64,000 nt of DNA from Escherichia coli (lineage in GTDB: Bacteria > Pseudomonadota > Gammaproteobacteria > Enterobacterales > Enterobacteriaceae). Below the pieces are notes generated by a model. The model made no database searches and was not told where the DNA came from. It worked only from the letters and a program-made list of their open reading frames with translations. Made by a program: the position numbers and the translations under genes. Of the stretch, positions 1,777 through 50,024 are shown piece by piece (positions within the stretch are counted from its first letter, which is position 1; each line of letters starts with the position of its first letter). The stretch lies in NCBI RefSeq assembly GCF_013315695.1, contig NZ_CP054353.1; one strand, 5' to 3'.

Positions 1777-1786
1777 CGTCACCCCC

Positions 1787-2445: not shown

Positions 2446-2477
2446 TTGCCACCTCAATTTATATATATAGAAACATG

Positions 2478-2795
2478 TGCGGGTTATGCGGGTTATTGGG
2501 TTATCTTAGCGTGCTAACCATTTTTTATCCTTTTATATCAGTATTTTGCAAAACACCCTGTTTATTATTTGCCCACCACGTAACCCGCAAAACGCTCAAA
2601 ATAACCCGCAAACGGGGTTTTTTCTGCGGGTTACGCATGACTGTCCGGTGTTACTTCAGTTATTCGCCTGCGGGTTATAATCGTGCTTTTGCGGGTTATA
2701 AATGCCCTTTTGCGGGTTACGTGCGGGTTATTGGTTTCCTTTATATTCATGCACTTAATACACTTATACACAGGATAACCCGCATAACCCGCAAT
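2478..2795. repeat. Iteron array / replication origin of the island
   Basis: About 11 copies of the 9-mer GCGGGTTA(T/C) in both orientations with AT-rich spacers, including tandem pairs, directly downstream of the primase-helicase gene. Confidence 0.7.
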
Positions 2796-2815
2796 TTTTT
2801 TCCTCACACAGGGGA

Positions 2816-4939
2816 TTAATCTTCATCATCAGGCTGGAACATCAGCACGTAAAAAACATGCTGCTTACCCCCAATCTTGCCCAGCGCCTTTTTTTTGTAT
2901 CGGCGATCGCTTCCCTTCTCCAGCATTCCGGCAGCATCCAGGGCACGCGCAAAATGCGCCGGATTAAATCCCTTCGCTATCTCACTCTCAAACACGTGCG
3001 GGAACGTGTAATAGCGCATCTCGTCATCTTCGTTGCGAATGCTCCCTTTTCTGTATCCGGCAAGCTCTTTAATCGGTAAATCACGCTCATCTGTATTGGG
3101 GTACGGAAGGTAGCGGCTAAACCCAAACGACGACAAAAACGCCTCAGCCTGTTCAACCATCTGTTTAAATTCCCTGTTACCCGTGCCGAACTCCTTCACC
3201 CAGGCATTAAAGTTATGCTGTATCGCGTCGCGGCATTCCTGCACGACCCAGCCAGTTACATGACCGGAAAGCACAAGCGCGGCCTCCAGTATGGCGAAAC
3301 GTTCACCCACGCGGTGGACCTGCTCGCCGTAGCTCTCCGGTATCAGGTTGCGCCACCGTTCGCGGCATTCCCTTACCGTATCCTTTGCCTCCTGCTGGTG
3401 GCCTGCCAGCCATTTAACCCACTCACGACCCGCCGCCCCGTGATTTGCTGTCCAGGCATCCTTTAACGCGTCAGCATGTTCCTTACCGTTGCTGTATTCG
3501 TGAAATTTCGTGGCTTTTTCCATCGGAACGTTAAGCAGTCGGACAAGCTGCCCCGCCTTAACTTTTATCCCCTCACTTTTGAGGAATGTCTCAACGTCCA
3601 TTTCTCCGGTGCTGATTGCCACCGTTCGCCAGTGTTTGATCTCCCTGTTGCCGCCATCCTTCGCCCCCTGCAATTTCCCTGAACCGTTAAACAGCGTATA
3701 AGCAGACGTTGACACTTCCCGCGCATTTCCGGCCTGGCCTATCTCATCCAGTGGTAAAAGCCCGTCATTATGGGCCTCGGCCTCATTGGCAATACCTAAC
3801 GCCGTGCCGTACCAGGTCAGCCGCTGCGCGTCCGGCTCTCCCCATAAACTTGATGCGATGTTCTGCGTGGTGGTCTTACCTGCCGATGACTGTTCGAAAA
3901 GATGCACCCCGAAGCCGTCAGCACCCACAAGGCCAATTAAAGGCGCTGCCAGTGACGTTGCCACACCCAGCATCATTGAGGCATTACCGCCAGCCAGCCG
4001 CGCCACACTCTCGCGCCAGCCCTCCGCCGTACCCGCCACGGAATAACCGTTAATCGCGGCGCTTTTTCCGGTAAACAGGATCGGTTTTTCAGAATCACCA
4101 ATGATCGAACCGTCCGGCATGATGTACGCGCCAAAATGCCAGCCCGTTGTTGTGCTTAACTGCCATTCCTCATGGCTTCCGCTTAACTGCATCCAGTCCG
4201 CCAGGATTGCCCTGTATTTGCCGTTGGTTGTCACGTTCAGCCCGTGATCTTTAAGTAACCGCCAGCCGTCACGGTCGCCGATACCACCACACGGGATCGC
4301 CATTGTGATGACTTCATGATTTGCTAATTTTTTCCAGCGCATGACGCGGTAATGCTCTTTACCGATCGTCCCCGTTCCCAGTAGTTCAAGCGGAGAACAT
4401 AACCACGTCTCAGGCCGGATAATTTCGCCTGACTGCTTATCCACTTTGGGCGTTACCCAGAAAACACCATCGGCGCGACTTTCAACGCGTGGCTTTAATT
4501 CGTCATCGCTATGGCTTCCGGTATCTTTTTTCTTTACCGGAAACTCAATAACCAGACCATCAGAAAGATTCTGCCGCTCACGGGCCAGATATTCGCGCCA
4601 GTTCTCCACCTCCTGACCGTGCATTCCATCAGGGTAAAAATTTGCATCCTGTACGCCTGCCGCCGCCAGCTTCTGACCAATCGCCTTGATCATTACTGGC
4701 TCAAGATGTCCGGCCCTGAATATGCGTACTGATTTTCGGCCTTCCGGCACAATTTGCAGCTTATCCAGTTCGGCAAGTTGTTGCTCTCCAAGCCAGACAG
4801 GAGGCACGTTATCGCCAGCCAGTCGCCCGTCCTGTTCCTGCCACTGTTTCGCATGTGCCCAGGCATCACTACCCGCAAAAATGATGACTTCCGTCATTTT
4901 GTCACGTGGCTGGTGTTTTAAATTTGGCGCTTTTTTCAT
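2816..4939 (-). CDS. Primase-helicase (P4 alpha-like, D5/SF3-type)
   Basis: ~707-aa ORF; Walker A-like SSAGKTTT; size and position (next to iteron ori, downstream of int/alpA) typical of satellite replication proteins. Likely start ATG at 4939 with GGAGAG RBS, overlapping upstream stop (ATGA); ORF track extends to 4954. Confidence 0.75.
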   Translation of the reverse strand: MKKAPNLKHQPRDKMTEVIIFAGSDAWAHAKQWQEQDGRLAGDNVPPVWLGEQQLAELDKLQIVPEGRKSVRIFRAGHLEPVMIKAIGQKLAAAGVQDANFYPDGMHGQEVENWREYLARERQNLSDGLVIEFPVKKKDTGSHSDDELKPRVESRADGVFWVTPKVDKQSGEIIRPETWLCSPLELLGTGTIGKEHYRVMRWKKLANHEVITMAIPCGGIGDRDGWRLLKDHGLNVTTNGKYRAILADWMQLSGSHEEWQLSTTTGWHFGAYIMPDGSIIGDSEKPILFTGKSAAINGYSVAGTAEGWRESVARLAGGNASMMLGVATSLAAPLIGLVGADGFGVHLFEQSSAGKTTTQNIASSLWGEPDAQRLTWYGTALGIANEAEAHNDGLLPLDEIGQAGNAREVSTSAYTLFNGSGKLQGAKDGGNREIKHWRTVAISTGEMDVETFLKSEGIKVKAGQLVRLLNVPMEKATKFHEYSNGKEHADALKDAWTANHGAAGREWVKWLAGHQQEAKDTVRECRERWRNLIPESYGEQVHRVGERFAILEAALVLSGHVTGWVVQECRDAIQHNFNAWVKEFGTGNREFKQMVEQAEAFLSSFGFSRYLPYPNTDERDLPIKELAGYRKGSIRNEDDEMRYYTFPHVFESEIAKGFNPAHFARALDAAGMLEKGSDRRYKKKALGKIGGKQHVFYVLMFQPDDED

Positions 4940-5235
4940 TTCTGCTCTCTCCACGCGGCAATCATGTTTTTCAGTTCCTGTAGTTTTTTATCCACATCCA
5001 CACGTGACACATGGTTATTTCTGGAAGTCGGGATTTCCCGCCTGAATCTGCTAATAAAGATCTCCACGTTCAGCGAACTATGAAATGAATAGCCATCACG
5101 AATAAAATACACACGGTCAAACATCAGTTCTTTTACCGTTACTCTGTTGCCGTTCTTATCCAGATAAATAGCGCCGGGGATAATTTTGGGGTGTGCATAA
5201 CCGCTGGCAGTCAAGCCAGATAAATATGTTCTCAT
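4936..5235 (-). CDS. Hypothetical protein (99 aa), low-GC cargo
   Basis: ORF translationally coupled to primase gene (ATGA); local GC ~30-38% versus ~50% for neighbours; no recognised domain. Confidence 0.5.
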   Translation of the reverse strand: MRTYLSGLTASGYAHPKIIPGAIYLDKNGNRVTVKELMFDRVYFIRDGYSFHSSLNVEIFISRFRREIPTSRNNHVSRVDVDKKLQELKNMIAAWREQK

Positions 5236-5241
5236 GATTAT

Positions 5242-5562
5242 TTATCCCCGATTTGAATCAGTATTCGCTTTCTTTATAGCATTTAATGCATTTGTGGCAT
5301 TTTCAATGGTGCACCGTAACGAAATATCAAACTGCCCAAGCATTGCCAGTAACAAACCGATATTACCCATATCAATGCGCATGGCCTTTTCGTCATATTC
5401 CTCATTTTCTGACGCATACCACATCAGGCTACCAATTGACGCAATACCCATTGATATATTGTCAGTAGCCCCATCCGCAGCGGAATAAACTTTTTTAGCA
5501 ATATCATGCTCACAGTTAAAATGCGGATTAATCAGGTACTGGTAATTGGTCATGTCAGGCAT
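5242..5562 (-). CDS. Hypothetical protein (106 aa), low-GC cargo
   Basis: ORF starting ATGCCTGA-overlapped with upstream 67-aa gene; low GC; no recognised domain. Confidence 0.5.
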   Translation of the reverse strand: MPDMTNYQYLINPHFNCEHDIAKKVYSAADGATDNISMGIASIGSLMWYASENEEYDEKAMRIDMGNIGLLLAMLGQFDISLRCTIENATNALNAIKKANTDSNRG

Positions 5563-5758
5563 GGCACACCCCCTGACGAATACGGGCGGCGAATACCATC
5601 ACGCAGCCAGCCGGGGATTGCTGGCGTGCTTCCTGTTCGCTGCTGGCCTCAATGGTAATCACGCGCGGTTGTGCCGTGCTCAGGGCGATAAAACGCCAGA
5701 TGTATTTATTCAGGTTGTGCGAGTCCCGCCCTTGCGGGTGTGTGGTATGATTTAACAT
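5555..5758 (-). CDS. Small conserved satellite protein (67 aa), possibly Icd-like
   Basis: 3' portion of a long spurious ORF; ATG at 5758 preceded by GAGG; native-like GC; YIWRF...FAARIR pattern vaguely matches Icd-like annotations from memory (unverified). Confidence 0.4.
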   Translation of the reverse strand: MLNHTTHPQGRDSHNLNKYIWRFIALSTAQPRVITIEASSEQEARQQSPAGCVMVFAARIRQGVCHA

Positions 5759-5839
5759 AGCTACCTCGATACTGTTGCTATCGTTGGTTGTTAGACGCCC
5801 TGCATGTGTTGCGAGCACTGCGGGGCGTTGCTCTTTCAG

Positions 5840-5885
5840 GTGTATTTCACCTTTGCTTTTTAATTTACTCACTGGTGAAATACAC
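5840..5885. promoter_or_regulatory. Perfect 12-bp inverted repeat in divergent promoter region (candidate operator)
   Basis: GTGTATTTCACC (5840-5851) and GGTGAAATACAC (5874-5885) separated by a 22-nt loop, followed by T-rich tract; lies between divergently oriented 67-aa gene and RHH gene. Confidence 0.45.
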
Positions 5886-5951
5886 TTCAAGCCTTTTTTT
5901 ATCATTTTTTTTGCGTATACTGACATACACCAATTTTTAGGAGATCCAGAA

Positions 5952-6131
5952 ATGGCAACTGGTGCAAAGAACGCAAAATCACAAATGACAACTGTCAGAA
6001 TCCCACATGAAGTAATGGATGATATTGAGCAACTTAAAGAACCTGGCGAAAGTACCGCTGGTTTTTTAGTTACTGCCGCAAAAGGCGAGATCAAACGCCG
6101 CCAGCGCCGCAAGGCCAAAGAATCAGAATAA
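5952..6131 (+). CDS. Ribbon-helix-helix-like small DNA-binding protein (59 aa), candidate repressor
   Basis: ATG at 5952 preceded by AGGAGAT RBS; N-terminal region (TTVRIPHEVMDDIEQLK) has RHH/CopG-like character; basic C-terminal tail. Confidence 0.45.
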   Translation: MATGAKNAKSQMTTVRIPHEVMDDIEQLKEPGESTAGFLVTAAKGEIKRRQRRKAKESE

Positions 6132-6188
6132 TCACTATCAGCGCCGTGGCGTGAGGTACTCCGGCGCATTGCTTTACAGGTCAGTACT

Positions 6189-6398
6189 ATGAGCAAAAAA
6201 CACCGATCAGCAGATGAGATTTTTGCAGAACAACGAAGATTGCTTTTGCAAAGTATCATTTCACGCCAGCAAGAGAAGGCGCGAGCTAAACAAATGCCAC
6301 CAAATACAGAACCAGCGCCTACAAGATTTGCGCTTGATGATTTTCTCGATAAACACCCCAGGGTAATGAAAGCAAACAAAAACCGCCCACCAGCCTGA
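6189..6398 (+). CDS. Hypothetical protein (69 aa)
   Basis: ORF downstream of RHH gene on same strand, followed by a strong terminator; weak RBS; no recognised family. Confidence 0.35.
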   Translation: MSKKHRSADEIFAEQRRLLLQSIISRQQEKARAKQMPPNTEPAPTRFALDDFLDKHPRVMKANKNRPPA

Positions 6399-6441
6399 TA
6401 GCGGCTATCATCCCCGTGCTTATGTTTAGTGTTTCCAAACT

Positions 6442-6469
6442 GGCGACCTCCCAAGGTCGCCTTTTTTTT
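6442..6469 (+). terminator. Rho-independent terminator
   Basis: GGCGACCT-ccca-AGGTCGCC hairpin followed by T8. Confidence 0.65.
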
Positions 6470-6488
6470 ATGTGCCATTGTCACCACC

Positions 6489-6785
6489 TCAAGCGGCCTT
6501 GCCTGAATTAATGCGTTCGCGGTTTTTGACCCACGCCACAACCTCAGACTTAACCCAGCCAACAGAACGACCGCCGAGACTGATACGGGAGGGGAAGCGG
6601 CCCTGCTTTTCCATCTCGTAACGAGTTGTGCGGCAAACGCCTGTTAGCTCTCTGCATTCTTTTTCGCGGATTACGCGATCTTCATTTATTTCACGCATAC
6701 AAAAACCTACATAAAAATTACGTATATAAACTTTTCTCTTAGCTGTAGATATATGAGATCGGATATTACTTAGATTCTTTTTCAC
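6489..6785 (-). CDS. alpA: AlpA/Vis-family phage transcriptional regulator / excisionase-like
   Basis: C-terminal part matches AlpA-type HTH pattern (ECRELTGVCRTTRYEMEKQGRFP...GGRSVGWVKSEVVAWV). Start uncertain: GTG at 6785 or ATG at 6698. Confidence 0.6.
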   Translation of the reverse strand: MKKNLSNIRSHISTAKRKVYIRNFYVGFCMREINEDRVIREKECRELTGVCRTTRYEMEKQGRFPSRISLGGRSVGWVKSEVVAWVKNRERINSGKAA

Positions 6786-7107
6786 CTCTTAAATTAAAAA
6801 CACAACCATGCTAAAGGCTTTGTTCGCTAAGGTTCGTAGAAGCTCGTTAGTGTTTAAAATCGTGTCACGAGTTTTTAAGCGACGCAACAAAAAATGTCGT
6901 TATTTGGCATGACACCTGAATTACCTCATTAAAAACAAATAGATAAACCATCAGGTGTTGGAACAATCAAGAAACAGAGAATAAGAACTAAGAAGAAGAC
7001 ATTTCAAATTTTTTCAATACTTGACACATATAAATCGTCGATATTTGCCGATATTCGACGATTTATTTTAGAGGGCCATTTTTCGCAAGAAAAACAGCCG
7101 TAATTTG

Positions 7108-8346
7108 TCAAGAATTTTGGGAGTAAATTCGCGGGGTCATAACAACGATTTTTTCATCATTGTTCTGGAGAAGCTCGAGACGCTCAACCCATAGATTAAG
7201 AGCGTCACGTTTTGCATCGAGATAACGGGAGTGATTATAGACTCGTTGCATTCCTGGCAACTGGTGCGCGGTTAGCTGCTCCACTACATGAGGATCCACG
7301 CCTAAATCGTTCAGCATCGTTGTAAACGTGTGCCGGATGTCGTGCAACGTCCAGGGGGCTTGATTAATGCGTCTGTGTGCCGTTCTTCCGTACTCTGATA
7401 CAGATGATTGCCCTTTCAGTTCTCCGAGTAATAAGCCCGTGTGTCGGTTCTGCTCCACCAGCTTCGTTACGAACGGCAAGATCGCTTCCGGTATTGGCCT
7501 GAATATTGCTACCTTCGTTTTGCTGTGTTCTTTCGGCACAGTCCAGAGCATTTCTTTAAAATCCCATTCCTGGACCTCAGAGCGTCTTAGCTCAGTGGTA
7601 CGGCATCCGAAGACAATCAGGAGGCGAATCAGGGCGCTGTAGTACGGTGTGTAAATTTTTTCATCCAGGGCGCGTAGTAATTCCCCAAGCTCCTTGTTTG
7701 TTAGTACGCGCTCGCTTATTTCTGCTTTTTTCCCAACATCACCTACAACCATATCATCTAGAACGTTGGTAATTGCGTAGCGTCGTTTGCGGCAGTACTT
7801 AAGCGCCTGCTTGCATACCTGTAACAAAAATCCTGCTGATACCGGATTACGCATAGCAAGCTGATCAAAACAGGTCAGCCAGTGGCGTAGCTCGCATTTT
7901 TCCAGCGGCATAGCACCAATATGGCTGATTATGTGTGTATTGATCCGGCTTTTCAGAGATTCGTAATCTGTGCGCTTTTCCTTCGCGTACGATTCAAGCC
8001 AGTAAGTGAGCGCTTCCTTAACCGTAACAGGTGATAACGCTTCCTGTACGGTGTGATTAAGCTCATGGCGTGGATTTTTACCCTCAGCAAGCCAGGCGCG
8101 ACACTGCGACGCTTTTTCCCTGGCTGCTTTCAGGCTCAAATCTGGATAATTTCCCAGCCTCAGACGTTCAGGGGCTACCTTCCTGCCTGTTCCGGCCCTG
8201 TAAGTGAAATACCAGGTTAACAGGCCATTGGTTGAATGCCTTACGCTAAGGTTGCCACCATCATTAAAAAAGGTGTTTTTTGTGGTTGGTGATCCGCTTA
8301 ATTTTCGTAAAAGAGTGTCGCTAAGTCTATGAATTGCCCTGCTCAT
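7108..8346 (-). CDS. int: Tyrosine-type site-specific integrase
   Basis: 412-aa ORF; C-terminal catalytic region with HDIRHT and ...VYNHSRY (R-H-R-Y family pattern); located at island edge next to host gene. Confidence 0.85.
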   Translation of the reverse strand: MSRAIHRLSDTLLRKLSGSPTTKNTFFNDGGNLSVRHSTNGLLTWYFTYRAGTGRKVAPERLRLGNYPDLSLKAAREKASQCRAWLAEGKNPRHELNHTVQEALSPVTVKEALTYWLESYAKEKRTDYESLKSRINTHIISHIGAMPLEKCELRHWLTCFDQLAMRNPVSAGFLLQVCKQALKYCRKRRYAITNVLDDMVVGDVGKKAEISERVLTNKELGELLRALDEKIYTPYYSALIRLLIVFGCRTTELRRSEVQEWDFKEMLWTVPKEHSKTKVAIFRPIPEAILPFVTKLVEQNRHTGLLLGELKGQSSVSEYGRTAHRRINQAPWTLHDIRHTFTTMLNDLGVDPHVVEQLTAHQLPGMQRVYNHSRYLDAKRDALNLWVERLELLQNNDEKIVVMTPRIYSQNS

Positions 8347-8401
8347 GTTTCGAATTTCCGGTCATCAAAATTAACTACACCATTGACTACACCGAGCATC
8401 G

Positions 8402-8434
8402 TACAAGGGCGAACTGTGACGAACAAGGGCGAAC
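8402..8434. repeat. Direct repeats (ACAAGGGCGAAC x2) in int-proximal attachment region
   Basis: Two copies of a 12-mer 8 bp apart, plus CGAACAC repeats nearby, between int start and cspD; candidate integrase arm-type sites. Confidence 0.3.
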
Positions 8435-8750
8435 AAGAAAAACGAAATTATCCTTTATAATCATAGAAATAAATGAGATACCTACACCATGACGAACACC
8501 CACGAACACTAACTGATAAATAACTATCATCTATCGTTGGCATCAGCGACATCTGTCACATTCCTGTCAATAGCGTTAACTGCTTCAAATTTTTGATTCA
8601 TACCTGCCCCCTGGCCCCTGTCAAATGCTTGACGGCTCGCCCTAATTCTCTAAATTGTATTTCTAGAGTTGGCGAGGTTTTGAACAGCCCCCTCTCTGAC
8701 CCCGGTTTATTCCATCTTACTTGTATAAGATTTGCGAAGGATGTCGAAGC

Positions 8751-14868: not shown

Positions 14869-15293
14869 ATCCCCTCCAGAAATATGTGACTTATCCTTTA
14901 CGCTGGCAGTATAACGGGAAAGGCCATGCTAATACGTGATGACATCACATTTAAGCATGGCAAATGTCTGAAAAATGAGCGAATAATCGCGTTATACTCC
15001 CTCTTGCTGATAAGCCTGCAAAAACAACAAAATCAAATAATTAGCATGATAAATTATTTTTTATTACGCCTAAAGGATTAAATCTTTTGCTTGCACTACA
15101 CTGTCAATCAGACAAATGACTATATGGGGCAACCCGCTGTTGCCCTAAATCAAATTTACTGGATTTATTTATCTGGTGAATGACTCGCCTTCGTTTTTAA
15201 AATAGCCGCGCATTATTTCCGTCGTCACTTTTTTACGACGACCCTATAAAACGACCATATTTTTCACAGGGTCAATTTTTAATTGAGGTGGAT

Positions 15294-15989
15294 ATGTTCA
15301 GAAAATTAGCAGCTGAATGTTTTGGTACTTTCTGGCTTGTTTTTGGTGGCTGTGGTAGTGCCGTACTGGCCGCAGGCTTCCCGGAATTAGGCATTGGTTT
15401 TGCCGGCGTGGCGCTTGCATTCGGTCTGACCGTTCTGACGATGGCCTTTGCTGTTGGTCATATTTCTGGTGGTCATTTTAACCCGGCGGTCACTATTGGT
15501 TTATGGGCTGGCGGACGTTTCCCGGCAAAAGAAGTCGTTGGCTACGTAATTGCCCAGGTTGTCGGCGGTATTGTTGCGGCGGCGCTGCTGTATTTAATTG
15601 CCAGTGGTAAAACGGGTTTTGACGCGGCAGCCAGCGGTTTTGCTTCTAACGGTTATGGCGAGCATTCGCCAGGCGGTTATTCCATGCTTTCCGCGCTGGT
15701 AGTTGAACTGGTATTGAGTGCAGGTTTCCTGCTGGTGATCCACGGCGCAACCGACAAATTCGCTCCGGCAGGTTTTGCGCCGATCGCTATTGGTCTGGCC
15801 TTAACCCTGATTCACTTAATCAGTATTCCGGTGACTAACACTTCTGTTAACCCGGCGCGCAGCACCGCGGTTGCTATCTTCCAGGGCGGCTGGGCGTTAG
15901 AACAACTGTGGTTCTTCTGGGTGGTGCCAATTGTCGGCGGTATTATCGGTGGTCTGATTTACCGGACCCTGCTGGAAAAGCGTAATTAA
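15294..15989 (+). CDS. aqpZ: Aquaporin Z
   Basis: MIP-family channel with two NPA motifs ([14 protein letters not shown]). Confidence 0.9.
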
Positions 15990-16001
15990 TTAACGCAGAA
16001 G

Positions 16002-16027
16002 GCCTGGCGCAATGTCAGGCTTTTTTT
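16002..16027 (+). terminator. aqpZ rho-independent terminator
   Basis: GCCTG-loop-CAGGC hairpin followed by T7 directly after aqpZ stop. Confidence 0.55.
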
Positions 16028-16112
16028 AAAATGTTGTTATATGTTGATTCATCATCTTGTTGCGCTCCTTTCATGAGCTAAGCCACATATTGCCACTGAC
16101 GCAAGGAGCGCG

Positions 16113-16141
16113 CAGGGGGCGGCCAATCGCCGCCGCCCCCT
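16113..16141. repeat. GC-rich palindrome
   Basis: CAGGGGGCGGC-caatcgc-GCCGCCCCCTG, perfect 11-bp arms. Confidence 0.4.
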
Positions 16142-16253
16142 GCCCCCCCGGGCTCTGGCGAACAAAATCGCCGCTGCGCGGTACCCTCGGCTTATCCCTT
16201 GCGGCTACCGGGTCGGGCGCGAGGTAACATATATGGACGCTCCCGGAATGCAA

Positions 16254-16503
16254 TGCTTTCTTCAGTTATGTAATAAAACGGGTAGGTGCAGCCATATATC
16301 CGGTTTCTGATGGGATTTTTATCCCGAACCATGATGAAATCCGCCAGGCAGGTACCAATCATCCTCTACGGGCTAACTTGCCCTTGTTACCTCTCGGTGT
16401 ATCCTGCCTGCGGTCTTACCTGTTTTGCCATCTTCTGAAGTCACCTGCACCTACCAGGACGTTAACTTTTTTTCAGCACCTCGTCAGATTGACTGACCTT
16501 GTG
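16254..16503 (-). ncRNA. Candidate structured non-coding RNA (possible bridge RNA) 3' of IS110-family recombinase
   Basis: 250-nt non-coding region with long-range inverted repeat GGTAGGTGCAG / CTGCACCTACC and local hairpins; bridge-RNA assignment is by analogy only. Confidence 0.25.
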
Positions 16504-17529
16504 TCAGGCGAGCTGCCGAGGTTGATATTCAGTATTGTGTGACAACATTGACCACATGATCCTCGCTGTTTTTGCCGCCATGGCGACAACAGCTACATTG
16601 TAGTGCTTCCGCTCAAGGAGTCCCTGAAGCCAGGAATTCTCCTCAACCGCGCCGTTTCGGTTGACCCAGGCGGTAAGTGCGCGTGCGCCGTGAACCAGCA
16701 GGTATCGGAAATATCCATCTCCACGTTTGCTGATCCCTCCCAGTTGCTGTTTCCCGCCGCTGGAATGTTCCTTTGGTGTCAGCCCCAGCCATGAAGCGAA
16801 CTGCTTTGCGGTACTGAATTGTCGGGCATTACCCACTGCTGCTACCACATAAGTGGCCGTTAGCATGCCAACCCCCGGGATCTTGGCCATTCTCTGGCAG
16901 GCTTCCTGCGTTCTATACCAGGAGGCCAGAGCTTCTTCTACCTGTTTAACTTGTTCTTCAAGTTCCCGGATATGTTTAGACTGTCTGTAGATGCTGGTTC
17001 TGACAAAGGGAGATAAACCATTTTCGCCATCCTCCAGAATGGCTGGCAGCTCACGTGTTAAATGGCTTTGTCCGGCCGCAATCGTAATACCAAACTCAGC
17101 AAGTGTGGCTCTTAAACTATTGGCACAGGCAATCCGCTCACGGATAAGTATTCCCCGTTCAGTGTGTAACGCTAAAACGGCCTGCTGCTCTTCGGTTTTT
17201 ATCTGAACAAAACGCATATTCGGACGGGTTACCGCTTCGCAGATTGCTTCAGCATCTGCTGCATCCGTCTTGTTCGTTTTCACATAAGGCTTCACATACT
17301 GCGGAGGTATGAGTTTTACCTCATGACCATAGCGGGTGAATAATCGCGCAAAATAATGACTGGATGAGCAGGCTTCCATGCCAATCAGACAAGGTTCCAG
17401 TTGAATCACAAACTGAACAAACTTAGCCCGGGTGAGCTTTTTACGCAAAATAGTATGGCCTTCATGATCGACACCATGAAGCTGAAAAACGTTCTTTGCC
17501 AGGTCGATACCAAGAGTTGATACTTTCAT
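16504..17529 (-). CDS. IS110-family transposase/recombinase (DEDD RuvC-like N-domain + C-terminal HhH domain)
   Basis: 341-aa ORF; N-terminus GIDLAKNVFQLHGVD and C-terminal AKIPGVGMLTATYVVAAVGNARQF...GISKRGD match IS110/IS1111 transposase family patterns. Confidence 0.8.
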   Translation of the reverse strand: MKVSTLGIDLAKNVFQLHGVDHEGHTILRKKLTRAKFVQFVIQLEPCLIGMEACSSSHYFARLFTRYGHEVKLIPPQYVKPYVKTNKTDAADAEAICEAVTRPNMRFVQIKTEEQQAVLALHTERGILIRERIACANSLRATLAEFGITIAAGQSHLTRELPAILEDGENGLSPFVRTSIYRQSKHIRELEEQVKQVEEALASWYRTQEACQRMAKIPGVGMLTATYVVAAVGNARQFSTAKQFASWLGLTPKEHSSGGKQQLGGISKRGDGYFRYLLVHGARALTAWVNRNGAVEENSWLQGLLERKHYNVAVVAMAAKTARIMWSMLSHNTEYQPRQLA

Positions 17530-17530
17530 G

Positions 17531-17606
17531 TGGACGCTCCTAATTTTTCAGGACGTATTGCAACGATCCAGTCTGGTACTTTGATACCGTAAAATCTGGA
17601 GCGTCC
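17531..17606 (-). promoter_or_regulatory. RBS-sequestering hairpin in recombinase leader
   Basis: On minus-strand RNA, TGGACGCTCC (from 17606-17597) can pair with GGAGCGTCCA (17540-17531), which contains the GGAG Shine-Dalgarno immediately before the ATG. Confidence 0.4.
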
Positions 17607-17760
17607 ATCTCATTATCCCTGTAAAACGCGCCCTCAGCCCACATCCATGTGGGCTGCCCCGGCCTTCAGGGAACGCCTCGGCGATTTTGACGCCACCAAA
17701 CAACCGTGCGGCCTATTGATAAAGAGCTAACACATTGTCAAAAAACATCACTATGGTTTC

Positions 17761-18708
17761 TTAGAGTTTCTCGATATCAATTGCCTGAATAGCCCTTGCA
17801 ATATCAGGGGAATTATTCAACACCCGAACATGCTGAAATAATTCTGTTGCTTCATCGTATTCTTTACGCAAATAACTCAACCACTGTTTAATCCGCGCTA
17901 CGTGATATAACCCGGTATCGCCCTGCTTTTCCAGACGGGTATATTTTTGCAGCAAAGCAACTACCTCCGGCCACGGCATTCGCGGTTCGTTATATTTTAC
18001 CACCCGGCTCAGGTTGGGAATATTGAGCGCCCCGCGACCAATCATCACTGCGTCACAGCCGCTGATCGCCATGCATTGTTGCGCGCTCTGCCAGTCCCAG
18101 ATTTCACCGTTGGCAATCACCGGAATATTCAACCGCTGGCGAATCTCGCCAATCGCCTGCCAGTCAATATGCTCCGCGCGGTAACCCTGCTCTTTTGTCC
18201 GCCCATGTACTACCAGCTCCGTAGCGCCAGCCTGTTGCACCGCATCGGCGATTTCAAATTTCTTCTCACCGCTGTCCCAGCCCAGACGCACTTTTACGCT
18301 GACGGGCAAATGCGCCGGTACAGCTTCGCGCATCGCTTTTGCACCCTGATAGATGAGTTCAGGATCTTTGAGTAACGTCGCCCCACCGCCGCTACCGTTA
18401 ACCGTTTTCGACGGGCAGCCGCAATTGAGATCCACGCCCCAGGAACCTAACTCGACCGCACGGGCGGCATTCTCTGCCAGCCATTGTGGGAACTGACCTA
18501 ACAACTGCACGCGCACCAGCGTACCGGATGGTGTCCGGCTGGCGTTTTGTAGCTCAGGGCAAATGCGATGAAAGACTTTTACCGGCAGCAGTTGATCCAC
18601 CACGCGGACAAACTCGGTGATGCACAGATCGTAGTCGTTAACTTCGGTCAGCAATTCACGCACCAGAGAGTCGAGTACACCCTCCATCGGTGCCAGTAAC
18701 ACACGCAT
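17761..18708 (-). CDS. dusC: tRNA-dihydrouridine synthase C
   Basis: 315-aa Dus-family TIM-barrel flavoenzyme; recognised as DusC (YohI). Confidence 0.9.
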
Positions 18709-18769: not shown

Positions 18770-19963
18770 TCAGCGTGGTTGCAAACAGTTATCTTCTTTC
18801 CAGCCGTACAGCCACTCCATGCCGCGGTAAAACTCTGCCTGCGATTTCCCTTTCCACAGCAGGTTACGTACCTGGCGCTCTACTCCTGCGGCATGATAAA
18901 CCCGCCCCATTTCACGGGTCGACCAGATGATGCGCGCGGTGCGCGGTATACGTACCGACTCATACAGCGCAAAGGCTTGTGCCGCATCACCCTCACACTG
19001 CGCCAGCGCCTTACCCAGTGTTACCGCGTCTTCCAGCGCCATACAGGCACCCTGCGCCATATACTGCGCCACCGAATGGGCCGCATCGCCCACCAGCGTA
19101 ATGCGCTTCGTTCCCCACTTCGCTACCGGTTCACGGTCGGCGGTTGACCAGCGTCGCCAGGAGGTCGGTTTATCCAGCATCTGGCGCGGACGGGGGTGAA
19201 TCCCTTCAAAGTAAGAGAGCACTTCCTCTTTACTGCCATCTTTCACGCCCCACTCTTCCTGCTGGCGGCTGTGGAATGTCACCACCAGGTTATACTGCTT
19301 GCCGCCGCGTAAAGGGTAATGCACCAAGTGACAGCACGGCCCCGCCCACAGTACTGGTGCGTTAATGCGCAAATCTTCCGGCATATCGGCACAATCGATA
19401 ACCGCACGGTAGACCACATGCCCGGTGACACGCGGCGCATCGCCCAATAAGCTCTGGCGCACCACTGACTTCACGCCGTCACAGCCAATCAGAATATCGC
19501 CGATCCAACTATTGCCGCGATCGTCGAAAACGGTGACATCGTCTTCTGTCTCGCGAATATCCACGACGTTGGTGGAGGTGTGATATTCCACGTCCGGATG
19601 CGTCAGTACCGCTTCCCACACCGAGGCATGAATATCAACCCGGTGGATCACCGCGTAAGGGCCGCCGAAATGATCGCGAAAGGCCTGACCGGTTTCAATG
19701 CGCACCACTTCTTCGGCGTTTACCGCATCCATCATGGTGATGTGATCGGTGAATACCGCGCGCTGGCGGGCGATTTCGCCGACGCCGAGGCTATCCAACG
19801 CCGAAAACGCATTTGGCCCCAACTGGATACCTGCGCCAATCTCACCGATCTCATGCGCCTTTTCCAGCAGCACCACTTTGATCCCCTGGCGGGCCAGTGA
19901 CAACGCAGTTGCCGCACCGCCGATCCCGCCTCCCACAATTACTGCGCGTGTCACTTTAGTCAT
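18770..19963 (-). CDS. mhbM: 3-hydroxybenzoate 6-hydroxylase (FAD-dependent monooxygenase)
   Basis: N-terminal GGGIGG FAD-binding fold, salicylate-hydroxylase-like; last gene of mhb-type cluster. Confidence 0.7.
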
Positions 19964-19977
19964 TATGGTTCTCCTGG

Positions 19978-20637
19978 TCAGGCTGAAATTTTATCTTGTT
20001 GATTTTCTGGCGCTGCGGCAATGAACGCTGGCAGCTGCGTGCAGGCGTCGTACACCGCTTTGCAGCGCGGATACCCGCTCAGATCGCAGTTCATACGTAG
20101 CGCGTTCGCCCACTGTGGAACAAGGCAGCAATCTGCCAGCGTCGGCGTCTCGCCCACACAAAATTGCCCCGACTGGCTCTGGCGCAGTAGCTGTTCCACC
20201 GCGCTTAACCCTTGCTGGATCCAGTGCGCATACCAGCGTTTTTTATCTTCTTCACTGACGTTCAGCTCTTCGGTCAGGTAGCGCAGCACGCGTAGGTTAT
20301 TCAATGGATGAATATCGCAGGCGATGGCATAGACAATTTCCAGCACCTTGTTGCGGGCCGGTTCTTCCTGCGGCATCAGCGGAACTTGCGGGTAGTGACT
20401 CTCCAGCCAGTCAATAATCGCCAGCGATTGTCCGAGTGATTCGCCCTCGTCGGTCAGCAGCGTCGGCACCAGCCCGACCGGATTCATCCGCCGGTAGGCC
20501 AGTTCGTTTTGCTGACCAATGCGGATATTCACCCCTTCGGTCTGGTAATCGATACCCTTCAGCGCCAGCGCAATGCGCACCCGGTAAGACGCTGAACTAT
20601 TAAAAAAACTGTACAGCTTCATCATCACCTCAGACAA
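19978..20637 (-). CDS. mhbI: Maleylpyruvate isomerase (zeta-class glutathione S-transferase)
   Basis: GST-fold N-terminus ([18 protein letters not shown]) typical of maleylacetoacetate/maleylpyruvate isomerases. Confidence 0.7.
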
Positions 20638-21331
20638 TCTTCACCGCGATAGGCGTTAAGCCCTCGACGTTGCCCGTGATCACATCACCTTTGACTACTG
20701 GGCCAACCCCTTCCGGCGTACCTGTAAAGATTAGATCGCCCGGTTGCAGTTCAAAGAAGCCTGACAGGTAGCTGATGGTTTCATTCACTGACCAGATGAG
20801 ATGACGAATATCGCTGCGCTGATGATCTTCGCCGTTAACCTGTAACCAGATAGGTGCGTTATCAATACCGCCAGTTTCGCTGGCTTTGTGCAGCGGCGCG
20901 ATGGGGGCCGAGAGATCGAACGCTTTGCCGATTTCCCACGGGCGGCCCATCTGGCGCATTTCCATTTGACGGTCACGGCGAGTCATATCAAGACCCGTGG
21001 CATAACCCCAGACATATTCATGGGCGTTTTCCAGCGGGATATCACTGCCTTTTTTACCAATCGCCACCACCAGTTCAATTTCATAATGGTAGTTATCGGT
21101 CTGCGCCGGATACGGCAGCGCCAGCGTTTCGCCAGCGGCAACCGGAACAACGGCATCCGCCGGTTTGCAGAAGAAGAATGGCGGTTCACGATCCGGATCA
21201 AAGCCCATTTCACGGGCGTGGGCGGCATAGTTACGTCCGACGCAGTAAACGCGGCGTACGGGGAATTGTTCATCACTGCCAACAACCGGTACGGTAACGG
21301 GCGCTTGTGGTTCGAATACGTATTGAGTCAT
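20630..21331 (-). CDS. mhbH: Fumarylpyruvate hydrolase (FAH family)
   Basis: FAH-family pattern ([16 protein letters not shown]...). Confidence 0.7.
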
Positions 21332-21346
21332 TTTCTCTCTCCCAAA

Positions 21347-22375
21347 TTAATAACGCGCTTCGCGGAACAGCCCCAGGGCTTCTTGTACCGGTCTGTCCGA
21401 AAAACTAAATAAAACGGTATCTTGCGTGGTCTGGAACGACACGCCGTGCCAGGTCGGCACCACGAAGATATCTTTTGCACTAAAGCTGAAGGTTTCATTG
21501 CCGATAGTGACCTGCCCGCTACCTTCCACCACATGGTAGATGGTGCTGTCAGTGGTACGCGCCACGCGTGAGGCAAACCCTTTCGGCAGCAGTTGCAGGA
21601 AAGCGCCCATCGACGGCATCGGATAGCCACCGGTGACCGGGTTGACGTAGCGCATTTTGTAGCCATCCCACTCATCGGCATCGCCCAGGCGGGTTAAATC
21701 GTGTAGCACTTCGCGGCTACGCTCATAACGGTAGTTAAAGATGGGCGAGGAGTTCCCGGTCTGATGGCGCAGCGGCAACATATTGGCAGCGTAACGCGGC
21801 AGATAATCGCCCTCTTTACGCGTTACTGGTTGTTGCTCCTCCGGGTAATCTTCGGCAAAACCGCAGCCCAGAGTGTTCACTAATGGCAGATCCAGCCCAT
21901 CGAGCCAGATAACCGGTTCGTCGCCAGGGTTACCGTGATCGTGCCAGCGCCACTGCGGGGTCAGGATAAAATCGCCCTCATTCATTGGCGTGCGTTCGCC
22001 ATCAACGGCGGTGAATGCCCCTTTACCTTCAACAATAAAACGCAGCGCCGACTGGTTATGGCGATGACTCGGTGCCACTTCGCCCGGCATGATCAGTTGC
22101 AAACCGGCATATAAAGTCGCGGTGATGGAAGACTGCCCGCGCAGCGCCGGGTTTTCCAGCACCAGCACGCGGCGCACGGCTTCTTTCGCGCCAATCAGGC
22201 TGCCGCTCTCCAGCAGCAGCGGGCGGATCTCCTGATAATTCCAGTACGCTGGCGCACAGTTAGCGTTGGGCGTTTTTGGCACCAGATGGTGCAGTGACTC
22301 CCACAGAGGGGTCAGGTTTTGCCCGGAAATATACTGATAAAATTGCTCGCGGCTATTTTGATTGTTATCAGTCAT
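21347..22375 (-). CDS. mhbD: Gentisate 1,2-dioxygenase (bicupin)
   Basis: 342-aa cupin protein with His-rich metal motif ([13 protein letters not shown]) and gentisate-dioxygenase-like N-terminus. Confidence 0.75.
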
Positions 22376-22386
22376 TGGGATGCTCC

Positions 22387-23745
22387 TTATTCGTTCACAA
22401 CACCTGCGTGAGGCAGTGAGTCAGGGACAGAGGTCGACTGGCGAACCACGGTGATCAGCAGGGTTAACATCACCGCACTGATCGCCGCGGGCACAGCGAT
22501 AATGAAAAACAGAGTGTCGAAAGAGAAATTCATCGCCATCATCACGCCGCCAGACAGCGAGCCAACAATCGCGCCGCAGCGGCCCACGGCGTTTGACCAG
22601 CTCACGCCCGTGGCGCGACTTTGTGTTGGATAAAGTGTTGCGGTCAGCGCATTCAGCCCCACCTGCGATCCGCTGATGCCAATGCCGGTGCCGAAAATCG
22701 CCAGCGCCATTAGCCATAATCCGTCCTGGCTTAAGCCAATCATCACGATGCATACAGCGCCTATGGCATAGCTCAGCGCCAGTACGCGGAAAGGATTGAA
22801 CTTATCCATCAGCACGCCCAGCGCCAGCGCGCCCAACGTACCGCCAATCTGGAACGCGGCGGTAACCCAGGAGGCATGTTGCAGGTCGATGCCGCGATGG
22901 TTGAGCAGCGTTGGCATCCAGCTTGAGAGCAGGTAAATAATCAGCAAGCTCATAAAGAACACCACCCACAGCATCAACGTGATGGGTAACTGACGCCCCA
23001 TAAACAGTTGACGAATGCTGCCTTTTGTAACGGAGGCTGATTCAATGAGATAAAAGTGGGTATCGACATAACGCTCGCGGGTGATGGCGCTGACGGTTTT
23101 CGCAATCACCGCCTGGGGTAGCTGGCGGCGCACCTGCCAGCGTGGCGATTCCGGCAGAACCACCAGCAGTGCAACAAACAGCATCAGCGGTAATACGCCA
23201 CCCAACACCAGGATCCCGTGCCAGCCAATCACCGGCACCAGCTGCGCGCTGACAATCCCACCAAACGCCGAACCCAGGGTAAAGCCGCAAAACATCAGCG
23301 TCACCAGCGCGCCGCGGCGGCGGGCAGGCAGATATTCCGAGGTCATGGTAATTGTGTTTGGCATCGCGCCACCCAGCCCAAGGCCGGTGAGGAAACGGAG
23401 GAATACTAGCGTTTGCAGATCCGGTGAGAAAGCCGAGGCGAGGCTTAACGCGCCAAACAAAAAGACGCACAGCTCAATCACCCGTTTGCGGCCAAAGCGA
23501 TCGGACAACGGACCACAAAGCAGTGCGCCTGCGGTTAACCCCAGCAGACCCGCGCCAAAAAGCGGGGCGAGATCGCCTGCGGTGAGTTGCCAGTGAGTGC
23601 GAATATCAGGGGCGATAAAGCCGATAGCCGCGGTGTCAAAACCATCGAGCATTACCACCAGAAAACAGCAGATGATAACGCGCCACTGCATCTTGCCGAC
23701 CGGAGCAGCATCGATCAGTGCTTGTAAATCACGTCGTTGAGTCAT
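22387..23745 (-). CDS. mhbT: MFS aromatic-acid transporter (3-hydroxybenzoate transporter-like)
   Basis: 452-aa, 12-TM MFS profile; first gene of the catabolic operon. Confidence 0.7.
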
Positions 23746-23871
23746 AGTAAATGCCTCAGTGCAGGTAAGGTAGATGTTTCTTTTGTTTTATGTATGTTGC
23801 GATATTGTGATTAAAGAGATGAAATGTACAATGGCATTTCGGGCAGAGAGATAACCTGGAGGTTATGGCAA

Positions 23872-24780
23872 ATGGCAAACTGGGCGCAGAAACTAAAGCT
23901 TCATCACCTGCAAATGCTGGTGGCGCTGGGTGAACAGGGCAATCTGACCCATGTGGCGCGGATGATGAATATCACCCAGCCTGCGCTGTCGAAATGGTTG
24001 TCACAACTCGAAGATGAGATCGGCCTCACACTCTTTGAGCGGCACAGCAAAGGGTTACGCCCTACCGAAGGCGGTAGATTGTTATTGCAACATGCCCAGC
24101 GGTTAATCAATGACATGGAGCGCTCGCAACATGAACTGGCCCGTTTTAAACAAGGTGGGCTGGTCGGCAGTCTGAAAATTGGCTGTTCTCCCGTCGCCAC
24201 TGACTGCGTATCACAGGCGATTTTGCATTTGCTCAAGGAGATGCCAACTCTACACCTGAATATTGAAGAGAAGGTTATGACCCCATTGCTGCAAGATCTG
24301 TTGGCAGGTTCTGTCGACGTGGTCGTTGGGCGAATTGGCGGTCGCGCCTTGCAGCTGCCACTGAATTATAAGGTGCTCTACACCGAGCCGGTGTGTTTTG
24401 TCGCCCGTGCTGAGCATCCACTGGCGAAATACGCCACCCTCAGCTGGAATGATCTTGCTAACTGGCGGTGGATAGTCTGGCCGACAGGTACCCCCATTCG
24501 CATCAGTATTGATAATGCGCTGGTAGACCACGGCGTGATGCTGCCAGAAAACACGATTGAGTCGGCGTCGATGAACGTCAGTACCAACCTGTTACAAAGC
24601 AGCGATATGATCTCTATTTTGTCATTACGCCTGGCGCAACGTTATGCCAGCCAGGGACAACTGGTGATCCTCAACCTGCCAAAGATAGAACAGAAAGGCA
24701 GCGTCGGTGTGTTCTGGCGCAATAACGAAACGCCTTCTTATGCTTTAAGTCAGTTTCTGCACTTTTTACAGCAGAATTAG
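23872..24780 (+). CDS. mhbR: LysR-family transcriptional regulator of the gentisate cluster
   Basis: N-terminal LysR HTH (LQMLVALGEQGNLTHVARMMNITQPALSKWLSQLE); divergent from operon; start set at MANWAQK with GGAGG RBS. Confidence 0.75.
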   Translation: MANWAQKLKLHHLQMLVALGEQGNLTHVARMMNITQPALSKWLSQLEDEIGLTLFERHSKGLRPTEGGRLLLQHAQRLINDMERSQHELARFKQGGLVGSLKIGCSPVATDCVSQAILHLLKEMPTLHLNIEEKVMTPLLQDLLAGSVDVVVGRIGGRALQLPLNYKVLYTEPVCFVARAEHPLAKYATLSWNDLANWRWIVWPTGTPIRISIDNALVDHGVMLPENTIESASMNVSTNLLQSSDMISILSLRLAQRYASQGQLVILNLPKIEQKGSVGVFWRNNETPSYALSQFLHFLQQN

Positions 24781-38892: not shown

Positions 38893-40884
38893 TCAGAAGC
38901 GATAATCCACTGCCATAAAGTAACGACGTCCGTCTTCGTTATAGCTGTAGTCGTCACGACTGAGATCCTTGTCGCCAAGGTTCAGCACGCCTGCGCGCAG
39001 TTTGACGTCTTTAGTTACCTGCCAGGCCGCACCGGTATTCCAGATGGTATAACCGCCCGGTGTTTTAGCCGTCGCGCTGTCGGCGCGTTTCTGCCCGGTA
39101 TAGTGACCAGAAACATAGAATGACCAGTCTTCCAGCGCCAGCGGTTTCCAGTCCAGCGTACCGTTAGCAGTATGGAACGGCAGATCGGATAGCGGTTTGT
39201 TTTCGCCGTTGCTGACATCACGACCATCGTTGTAGGTGTAGTTGAGTGACAGTTTCCATTCATCGTTGAACGGAATTTTCAGCTCGGTTTCCACGCCCTG
39301 AATACGTGCTTTGTTAACGTTGTAGTAGCTGAATACCGGTATGCGCCGTCCGTTAGCGCCCGTCTCAAAACCGACAAAGTTTTGGTAGCCCGGTGCAGCA
39401 TTGACGTCAGACGTACGGCTGATGCTGATGCGATCTTTCACATCGTTACGGAAAACGGTAACGCTGGACTCCACCCCTTCCAGCCAGCCTTCTTCACCCA
39501 TGTAGTAAAGCCCCAGCTCCCAACTTTCGCTGGTTTCTGGTTTCAGATCCGGGCTACCCACAATCTTACATGCGCCACGGCAGGAATTGCTCGTCCAGTC
39601 AGGGCTAAGTTGCAACAGAGAAGGCGCTTTAAATGCCGTCGCCCAGCCCCCTTTCACCGTTACGGTGTCGGTGGCGTTATAAACCAGGTAGGCACGCGGA
39701 CTCCAGTGTTCACCGTAGGTTTCATGATCGTCCATACGTACGCCGGTCGTCAGCGCCAGCGGCTCGAAGATCCGCCATTCATCTTCCACAAACAGCGCGT
39801 ACTGGCTGGCAGATGTTTTGGAGCTGGTTCCCCCTGTCAGGTTCACCTCATCGCTAAGTTTGTCGTGACGCCATTCACCGCCAACCGTGAGAAACTGATT
39901 AATCGCCGTTAACGGCAACGTGTATTTGCCGTCGACCGTATTGCTTTCGGAAGTTATCGGGCTGCTGTTGCCGGGGTTTTTGTTCTCGACTTTCTCACCG
40001 TAGTATTTCAGTTCGCTGGTGCCGTAATCCCAACGCCCATTATGGCTAACGGAGTAGTTCTGGCGTTCCAGGCGGTTTTTGTCCAGCGAGTCGGAATCAC
40101 GATCCTGACGGTCGAAACCGTATCCGGCAGTAAAATCGTGATTTTGATTCGGTGTCCAGGCAAATTCGACATTGCCGTCGCGGCTGGAGAATCCTTCAAT
40201 ACGCGGCGTTTCTCCGGTATCGGTGGTCGTTGAGTTTTGCGGGTCATCCTTTTCACGTTTTGCCAGGCTGCCGTAAGCTTTCATTCCCAGCACGCCGTCA
40301 ATTAATGGTCCGCTGGTAAAGAACTGACCGTTATAGGTATCACCGCGATCGCGATGTTCCTGAACGGTGGTATCGACGGTAACGGTGCCCGACCATTTCT
40401 GACCGATTTTTTTGGTGATGATATTCACTACACCGCCGAGCGCATCGGAACCGTACAGCGACGACATCGGACCACGGACCACTTCAATACGTTCGATGGA
40501 ATCGACCGGGATCCAGTTCAGATCGAAATCATTGTGGCGGAAGACGGCATTGCGGGAGTTAACGCGTTTACCGTCGACAAGAATCAGGGTGTAGCTGCTG
40601 TCCAGACCACGAATACTTACGCCCTTACGGTTATCCCCTTCGTTCGTCAGTTGTACGCCAGGCACTTCTTTGAGGACATCCTTCAGATTCTGTACCGGTT
40701 TTCGCTGCAGGTCTTCCTAGGTAATGACGCTGATACTGGCGGGTGCATCTTTAAGGTTTTGCTCAACGGAAGATGCAGTGACAACCATCGTTTCGCCATC
40801 ATCATCGACCGCTAACACAGGCCATGCACAAGAAATAGCGGACAAACACAGCCCGACCCGTACGAAAGGGTTCAACCTAAACAT
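38893..40884 (-). pseudogene. cirA: cirA (catecholate siderophore / colicin Ia-Ib receptor) interrupted by in-frame amber codon
   Basis: Reading frame from ATG at 40884 encodes the CirA signal peptide and TonB box (ETMVVTA) then TAG at codon 56 (minus-strand codon 40719-40717) where K-12 has Gln, as I recall; the rest of the 663-codon frame is intact. Confidence 0.7.
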
Positions 40885-41176
40885 TCCATATCTCCATGAG
40901 GTAACTACGAAAATAAAATGGGTTATCGCTCACATCTTCTTCATGTCCCCTTGCGTACGGCAGCATCGCGGTGGACTTATTTGTATGCAGGTGATCATCC
41001 CAGAAAGCCGGAACAGCCTCTGATTTGTCAGCCTTTTTTGATTGCGGCGTAACGATAATGCAAACGATAACAATTATCAATCCAAATGTTAAATTTTATA
41101 TCCGCATGATTTGTCAGGGAAATGGAATTGAAAAAGCCCTCTCGGTTGAGAGGGCTTAGCAAGGAAGGGAGGAAAC

Positions 41177-49326: not shown

Positions 49327-49602
49327 GTGGCTTCTGTTTCTATCAGCTGTCCCTCCTGTTCAGCTACTGACGGGGTGGTGCGTAACGGCAAAAGCACCGC
49401 CGGACATCAGCGCTATCTCTGCTCTCACTGCCGTAAAACATGGCAACTGCAGTTCACTTACACCGCTTCTCAACCCGGTACGCACCAGAAAATCATTGAT
49501 ATGGCCATGAATGGCGTTGGATGCCGGGCAACAGCCCGCATTATGGGCGTTGGCCTCAACACGATTTTACGTCACTTAAAAAACTCAGGCCGCAGTCGGT
49601 AA
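49327..49602 (+). CDS. insA: IS1 InsA
   Basis: 91-aa protein with CPSC...CSHC zinc finger; recognised IS1 InsA. Confidence 0.9.
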
Positions 49603-50024
49603 CCTCGCGCATACAGCCGGGCAGTGACGTCATCGTCTGCGCGGAAATGGACGAACAGTGGGGCTATGTCGGGGCTAAATCGCGCCAGCGCTGGCTGTTT
49701 TACGCGTATGACAGGCTCCGGAAGACGGTTGTTGCGCACGTATTCGGTGAACGCACTATGGCGACGCTGGGGCGTCTTATGAGCCTGCTGTCACCCTTTG
49801 ACGTGGTGATATGGATGACGGATGGCTGGCCGCTGTATGAATCCCGCCTGAAGGGAAAGCTGCACGTAATCAGCAAGCGATATACGCAGCGAATTGAGCG
49901 GCATAACCTGAATCTGAGGCAGCACCTGGCACGGCTGGGACGGAAGTCGCTGTCGTTCTCAAAATCGGTGGAGCTGCATGACAAAGTCATCGGGCATTAT
50001 CTGAACATAAAACACTATCAATAA
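49521..50024 (+). CDS. insB: IS1 InsB (expressed as InsAB' by -1 frameshift)
   Basis: 167-aa ORF overlapping the insA 3' end in the -1 frame; recognised IS1 InsB. Confidence 0.85.

Follow-up and report, generated by a model that had tools for sequence, protein, structure and literature searches.

The cirA locus and its amber codon

The analysed DNA is a stretch of 64,000 nt (the window) from the Escherichia coli contig NZ_CP054353.1 (assembly GCF_013315695.1). The cirA gene of the window, which encodes the catecholate siderophore and colicin I receptor, is interrupted by a TAG codon in place of Gln56 (the Q56* allele). The gene and the features that bear on the stop are listed below.

38893-40884, minus strand: cirA pseudogene (catecholate siderophore / colicin I receptor), identified from the translation, the K-12 comparison, synteny and a match to PDB 2HDF
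40885-41176, minus strand: upstream region of cirA (putative promoter, probably Fur-regulated) up to the lysP stop, the same as in MS 21-1, a relative with an intact allele
40810-40884, minus strand: signal peptide, codons 1-25, still translated; the cleavage site is placed by the 2HDF mature chain, which starts at residue 26
40774-40794, minus strand: putative TonB box ETMVVTA, read from the translation at residues 31-37, before the stop
40717-40719, minus strand: amber TAG in place of Gln56 (CAG), reading CTA on the plus strand, within CCTAGG at 40716-40721
39848, minus strand: missense change A346E (GCG to GAG) beyond the stop, private to the window (0 of 24 other cirA sequences compared)

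Translation of the minus strand from 38893 to 40884 gave 663 codons and the normal terminator, with a single internal stop, the TAG at codon 56; the remaining 662 codons are open. The mutated base is 40719, which is A on the plus strand and T on the coding strand. In the list of open reading frames (ORFs), the gene appears as a 55-aa ORF (40717-40884) and a 590-aa ORF with a GTG restart (38893-40665). The cirA gene of K-12 MG1655 (b2155) reads GTC ATT ACC CAG GAA at codons 53-57. Comparison of the two genes showed differences at 39 of 1992 nt, which result in Q56*, I174V, A346E and I547L. Residues 26-663 of K-12 CirA align to PDB 2HDF, 'Colicin I receptor', with E = 0, and the gene order yeiG-cirA-lysP is conserved around the gene of the window. 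The cirA of the window is thus a pseudogene, with the K-12 identity, the synteny and the 2HDF match of a CirA gene and everything but an open frame. The translation and the b2155 sequence confirm two points of the original prediction, that the frame is intact apart from the TAG in CCTAGG and that K-12 has CAG at codon 56.

The motif ETMVVTA, which we take to be the TonB box from established knowledge of TonB-dependent transporters, lies before the stop. As the alignment to 2HDF starts at residue 26, 30 mature residues precede the stop. Translation would end at codon 56 through release factor 1 (RF1) and would leave a 30-residue periplasmic peptide. Neither the plug nor the barrel would be made, and the outer membrane would be devoid of the CirA receptor. 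The frame and the position of the stop support the earlier claim that a TAG located past the signal peptide and the TonB box should give a receptor-null allele. Two ways of restoring function were rejected. A product of the downstream GTG restart (40665) would have no signal peptide, and natural read-through of UAG inserts Gln, but in amounts known to be too small to matter.

Nearest relatives and inheritance of the stop

The best match of the cirA-lysP segment is E. coli MSB1_4I (rectal swab, Australia), with 100.0% identity and the same TAG. The Prokaryotic Genome Annotation Pipeline (PGAP) calls the cirA of MSB1_4I a pseudogene with the note 'internal stop'. Between the window and MSB1_4I there are 7 single-nucleotide polymorphisms (SNPs) across 8520-64000, whereas 1-8519 is unrelated and non-collinear, so that the window stems from a close relative of MSB1_4I and not from that genome itself. 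The same TAG is present at codon 56 in AF3 (blood culture, UK). MS 21-1 (colon, USA) has CAG at codon 56 and, over the 3.4 kb aligned, shows no other difference from AF3. Over ~3.4 kb aligned, the window differs from MS 21-1 at 39835, 39848 and 40719 only, and the change at 39835 is common to the window and MSB1_4I. Two UK bloodstream isolates in the haplotype group of the window, AF14 (NZ_OZ546925.1) and NZ_OZ546911.1, carry TAG at both codons 56 and 243, indicating that a second hotspot, described below, fired in an already dead gene. The stop is vertically inherited within the clone of the window, and the pseudogene is persisting and decaying there. The description of the allele as recent was only partly right, since Australian and UK isolates share it and further changes have been gained.

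A sequencing or assembly error in the window, which had been named as the alternative, is hardly credible. The same T is found in MSB1_4I, AF3, AF14 and OZ546911 and in 30 further assemblies of unrelated projects. The allele is thus present in the closest relatives and in 34 assemblies from different laboratories, against the earlier suggestion.

The private A346E change fits relaxed constraint after inactivation, though it is a single event. In MSB1_4I, irp2 (internal stop), irp1 (frameshift and internal stop) and pagP (frameshift) are also flagged as pseudogenes, irp2 and irp1 being yersiniabactin synthetase genes. Either iron-uptake and envelope genes are decaying more widely in the clone, or these lesions are assembly errors.

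Dcm context of codon 56

Listing of all CCWGG sites in cirA showed that exactly three Dcm positions can yield an amber codon, one at Q56 (CCAGG) and two at W243 and W621 (both CC-TGG).

40716-40720: former Dcm site, CCAGG on the wild-type coding strand and CTAGG here (aligned to MS 21-1 and K-12); codon 56 begins at the inner C
40156-40160: second amber-capable Dcm site, Trp243, CC-TGG; wild-type in the window, TAG in 21 other genomes, two of them of the clone of the window
39022-39026: third amber-capable Dcm site, Trp621, CC-TGG; wild-type in the window, TAG in 5 other genomes

The wild-type sequence ACC-CAG-GAA of K-12 and MS 21-1, which spans codons 55-57, contains CCAGG, the recognition sequence of Dcm. 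The Q56* change is a C-to-T transition at the inner C of this sequence. The inner C of CCAGG is the base methylated by Dcm, and deamination of 5-methylcytosine gives thymine. The original prediction had noticed the CCTAGG but missed that its wild-type form is a Dcm site, and hence the cause of repeated hits. In MSB1_4I, the closest complete genome, the annotation gives intact copies of dcm (WP_001157265.1) and of vsr (WP_000228686.1); the statements on dcm, vsr and the glutamine tRNAs refer to this genome.

Most likely, a 5-methylcytosine at codon 56 was deaminated and escaped very-short-patch repair by Vsr, which would turn CCAGG into CTAGG and CAG into TAG. Vsr is the enzyme that normally corrects the resulting T:G mismatch (PMC2715241). 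At such a hypermutable site, the same allele would arise again and again in unrelated E. coli lineages, and it would probably be retained because strains often gain from losing Cir, or at least pay little for it. We consider it very probable that Q56* is a genuine inherited loss-of-function allele that originated from a C-to-T change at a Dcm site, that recurs across lineages, and that is kept for one of these two reasons.

The site has well-known counterparts in the amber hotspots of lacI. According to the review PMC12606429 on the work of Coulondre, Miller, Farabaugh and Gilbert (1978), two CCAGG sites of lacI are ~ten-fold over-represented among 26 possible nonsense sites. As in cirA, the inner C of these lacI hotspots is the first base of a CAG codon and its change to T gives TAG, over-represented at least ten-fold compared with other nonsense sites according to the same review. 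The lacI hotspots differ in that they come from laboratory K-12 mutation spectra, whereas the cirA allele is standing variation in wild genomes and affects a receptor whose loss can be advantageous.

Recurrence of Q56* in complete genomes

A 31-mer probe centred on the T, for which the megablast seed was an exact 28-mer containing the T, was compared with 5426 complete E. coli genomes. TAG56 was found in 34 of them (~0.6%), the nearest relatives of the window included. The carriers are wild isolates from several continents, taken from humans, poultry, cattle, food and the environment. In each of the 22 carriers that were fetched, the reading frame first ends prematurely at codon 56, and PGAP annotates cirA with an internal stop (22/22).

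Together with the window, the 22 carriers fall into 12 local haplotype groups that are at least 6 and up to ~66 SNPs apart per ~3.4 kb, indicating that Q56* recurs. In the first 18 carrier sequences compared, the SNPs closest to the TAG that distinguish haplotypes are 22 nt and 101 nt away. The carrier APEC E18055, of the type of sequence type 95 (ST95), has 1 mismatch in 4031 nt to at least 24 genomes outside the TAG list, among them UTI89, IHE3034 and NU14.

The haplotype groups could also have acquired a single ancestral TAG by homologous recombination between lineages. E. coli recombines, and the first 18 carrier sequences compared do not differ over a 122-bp segment (40619-40740), so that very short imports are possible in single cases. 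However, this explanation needs about eleven imports, each shorter than ~122 bp and with both flanks staying of the recipient haplotype. In addition, this one base in 4 kb is all that separates the ST95-type carrier from its CAG sisters, and two further Dcm sites of cirA recur in the same manner. Spread by recombination is thus very improbable. Judged from the haplotypes, Q56* appears to have arisen repeatedly, as about eleven micro-recombination events would be a much less economical explanation than independent recurrence.

Two side observations concern the carriers. Poultry isolates account for 9 of the 34 as a raw count. Four of the 34 have a second Dcm-site transition in cirA, compared with 1.5% overall (binomial p ~0.002, or p = 0.013 if the two UK isolates are counted once). 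These second transitions are L207 TTG and L400 CTA (NZ_CM143912.1, E04, and NZ_AP042523.1, OkiPb01685) and W243 TAG (NZ_OZ546925.1 and NZ_OZ546911.1). The slight excess could hint at lineages with weaker Vsr repair.

Other Dcm sites of cirA

The other sites of cirA were searched with concatenated mutant 31-mers covering all local haplotypes. At the three Dcm sites, TAG was found in 34 genomes (Q56), 21 genomes (W243, ~0.4%) and 5 genomes (W621). The 54 non-Dcm sites at which a transition gives a nonsense codon were pooled and gave 72 genomes, spread over at least 23 sites with at most 9 genomes per site among the 60 matches listed. The Dcm sites thus have a mean of 20 genomes per site against 1.3 per site for the non-Dcm sites, a ~15-fold difference, and the prediction of the hotspot model held for the amber-capable Dcm sites of cirA. 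The change at codon 56 shows four of the six features that define a Dcm hotspot mutation, namely a CCWGG sequence with the inner C mutated, a C-to-T change, dcm and vsr in the nearest genome, and a recurrence above that of the non-Dcm sites. In total, at least 130 of the 5426 genomes (2.4%) carry a cirA stop of the transition type, and Q56* is the commonest cirA nonsense allele among the transition-type alleles.

Among the non-Dcm changes, TAG at Q60 was found in 9 genomes (GPEC464, GPEC606, GPEC1042, GPEC1165 and GPEC1185 among them), mostly chicken isolates of one project and probably one clone. The poultry Q56* and Q60* alleles are possibly tied to ColV or to a poultry flora rich in colicins Ia/Ib.

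Amber suppression

The original prediction also raised a laboratory amber marker and suppression by a supE allele of glnV. A suppressed allele would be functional, since supE would insert Gln and restore wild-type CirA. In the metT-leuW-glnUW-metU-glnVX operon of MSB1_4I, however, ARAGORN gave TTG anticodons for glnU and glnW and CTG anticodons for glnV and glnX, and the 64-kb window contains no tRNA gene. A 31-mer search for supE-type and supF-type anticodons matched 157 genomes. All of the 60 matches listed are to the supE part and belong, judged by name and by a genome size of 4.5-4.8 Mb, to K-12 laboratory strains or their derivatives (C600, DH5alpha, DH1 and J53 among them), and the recovery of known supE strains validates the query. 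The carriers of TAG56, by contrast, are wild isolates from many countries. Overall, no sign of a suppressor was seen among the glutamine tRNAs of MSB1_4I and in the supE-type and supF-type searches, which did not cover other tRNA genes. Neither suggestion was borne out, and we give almost no credence to a laboratory marker or to an allele kept functional by a suppressor.

Possible selection for loss of Cir

Each Dcm palindrome contains two methylated cytosines, so that the nonsense change can be compared with its synonymous partner in the same palindrome. At the Q56 palindrome, TAG is present in 34 genomes and the synonymous CAA in 1. The W243 palindrome shows TAG in 21 genomes and the synonymous GCT of A242 in 1, and at the W621 palindrome both TAG and the synonymous GCT of A620 are present in 5. 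For Q56 the mutated cytosine of the nonsense change belongs to the coding strand, for W243 to the template strand; thus, a transcription-strand bias cannot explain both excesses. Over nine positions, the three partners included, synonymous transitions at the Dcm sites of cirA were found in 0-17 genomes each, with a mean of 5.1. Counted by background, there are at least 12 independent TAG backgrounds at Q56 versus 1 genome with the synonymous change; an earlier count of at least 10 TAG backgrounds versus 1 gave a one-sided binomial p of 0.006. The counts provide moderate evidence that loss of Cir may often be favoured. The selection proposed in the original prediction is therefore plausible and has indirect support from the nonsense and synonymous counts, but remains suggestive.

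Several points weigh against this reading and the origin proposed above. Some of the synonymous Dcm changes are fairly common (L207 CTA in 17 genomes and L272 TTG in 12), and the third palindrome, W621, has equal numbers of nonsense and synonymous changes, so that the case for positive selection is suggestive only. All the amber events are CCAGG-to-CTAGG changes, and unequal repair of CTAGG and CTTGG mismatches could play a part; no consistent bias between the two was seen at the synonymous Dcm sites, however. The counts refer to genomes rather than to independent events, in a RefSeq set of complete genomes that over-samples clinical and poultry clones. They comprise transition-type nonsense changes only, leaving out transversion-type nonsense changes, frameshifts and insertion sequence (IS) insertions in cirA. 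Finally, methylation and deamination at codon 56 are deduced from the sequence context and the recurrence.

The same data could arise from a hotspot without selection. The recurrence would then result from hypermutability together with a dispensable Cir, and the frequency from neutral or slightly deleterious decay and hitch-hiking in sampled clones. Consistent with this, the W243 amber of AF14 and OZ546911 arose in an already null gene, where selection is impossible, and catecholate uptake is redundant through FepA and Fiu. The common synonymous changes (12-17 genomes) and the equality at W621 point in the same direction. However, the nonsense change exceeds an equally mutable synonymous partner 34:1 and 21:1 at two palindromes, and the excess at Q56 persists when haplotype backgrounds are counted. 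Neutral or deleterious alleles should not outnumber neutral synonymous ones. A hotspot without selection is thus possible but on the doubtful side, and a hotspot whose product is kept because loss of Cir is cheap or advantageous is the preferred explanation.

Predicted phenotype and relation to known systems

Q56* is predicted to make the cell resistant to colicins Ia/Ib and microcin V and to lower the uptake of catechol-conjugated beta-lactams such as cefiderocol. Its cost would be the loss of one of three redundant catecholate receptors, for which FepA and Fiu would compensate. Truncation of cirA shifted the minimum inhibitory concentration of cefiderocol 8- to 64-fold in NDM-5 E. coli (PMC9241927). 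In Salmonella Reading, a cirA truncation abolished the sensitivity to colicin Ib and lowered the susceptibility to cefiderocol (PMC10830755). These cefiderocol- or colicin-resistant isolates resemble the allele of the window in the premature termination of CirA, and their phenotypes were demonstrated by complementation or deletion (PMC9241927, PMC10830755). The lesions are different: CirA ends at residue 109 in the ST167 isolates presented for NDM-5 E. coli, while Salmonella Reading has a deletion that shifts the frame, and the phenotype of Q56* is predicted from the position of its stop.

Both the loss of cirA and the Dcm hotspot are textbook or recently published phenomena, and the combination is no new kind of system. 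A literature search, which did not cover the survey of Cherry (2018), found neither Q56* nor a Dcm context for cirA. That survey, on methylation-induced hypermutation in natural bacterial populations, reportedly identified Dcm sites as C-to-T hotspots in wild E. coli and Salmonella; cirA Q56 would illustrate this general claim. In wild strains, the codon illustrates cleanly how standing variation is shaped by a textbook mechanism of mutation. A specific, predictable base change would remove the principal route by which cefiderocol, colicins Ia/Ib and microcin V enter the cell. Given the standing frequencies of Q56* and W243*, genotype-based predictions of susceptibility to cefiderocol or bacteriocins should check these codons.

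Contingency loci resemble cirA Q56 in that a locally raised mutation rate turns off a cell-surface receptor that toxins and phages exploit. In contrast to such loci, cirA Q56 is a single substitution in unique sequence, with no simple-sequence repeat or invertible element, and its forward rate is orders of magnitude lower. A related explanation would be a quasi-reversible Dcm/Vsr switch at codons 56 and 243, in which deamination turns the receptor off and a CTAGG-to-CCAGG change by Vsr turns it on. Vsr is reported to stimulate CTAGG-to-CCAGG mutations (PMC2715241), and strains with TAG and CAG coexist on otherwise identical haplotypes of 3.4-4 kb. If true, the switch would let E. coli hedge between iron scavenging and the evasion of the toxins and phages that use this colicin, microcin and phage receptor. 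However, no reversion event was seen, and true phase variation proceeds at rates far above those expected here. Moreover, the clone of the window kept the TAG and gained substitutions and, in a sub-branch, a second stop, which resembles decay. The switch is therefore improbable, and recurrent one-way loss at a Dcm hotspot is preferred.

Other features of the window

The window starts within a phage-like integrated element (1-8519) that runs off its end. The following genes of the element were assigned with PHROGs.

12-1067: major head protein
1787-2197: SSB
2816-4954: DNA primase
7108-8346: integrase

The junction of the element at ~8519 lies between yljB and clpS and not at a tRNA gene. At the position of the element, MSB1_4I has clpS-clpA-serW-infA-aat-cydCD.

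An IS110-family transposase (16504-17529) is located at a synteny break (flanks 15288-18708), where dusC adjoins aqpZ-ybjD-ybjX-macAB-cspD. On the K-12 map, dusC presumably lies at ~2.23 Mb and aqpZ-ybjD-ybjX-macAB-cspD at ~0.92 Mb. The break suggests a large inversion, approximately symmetric about the replication terminus and shared with MSB1_4I.

Between yohJ and dusC, the annotation of MSB1_4I shows a 3-hydroxybenzoate / gentisate catabolic cluster (18770-24780), which to our knowledge is absent from K-12. Its genes encode a LysR regulator, mhbT, gtdA, a fumarylacetoacetate hydrolase family protein, maiA and a 3-hydroxybenzoate 6-monooxygenase. According to the same annotation, a copy of IS1A (49327-50024) lies between yeiL and rihB.

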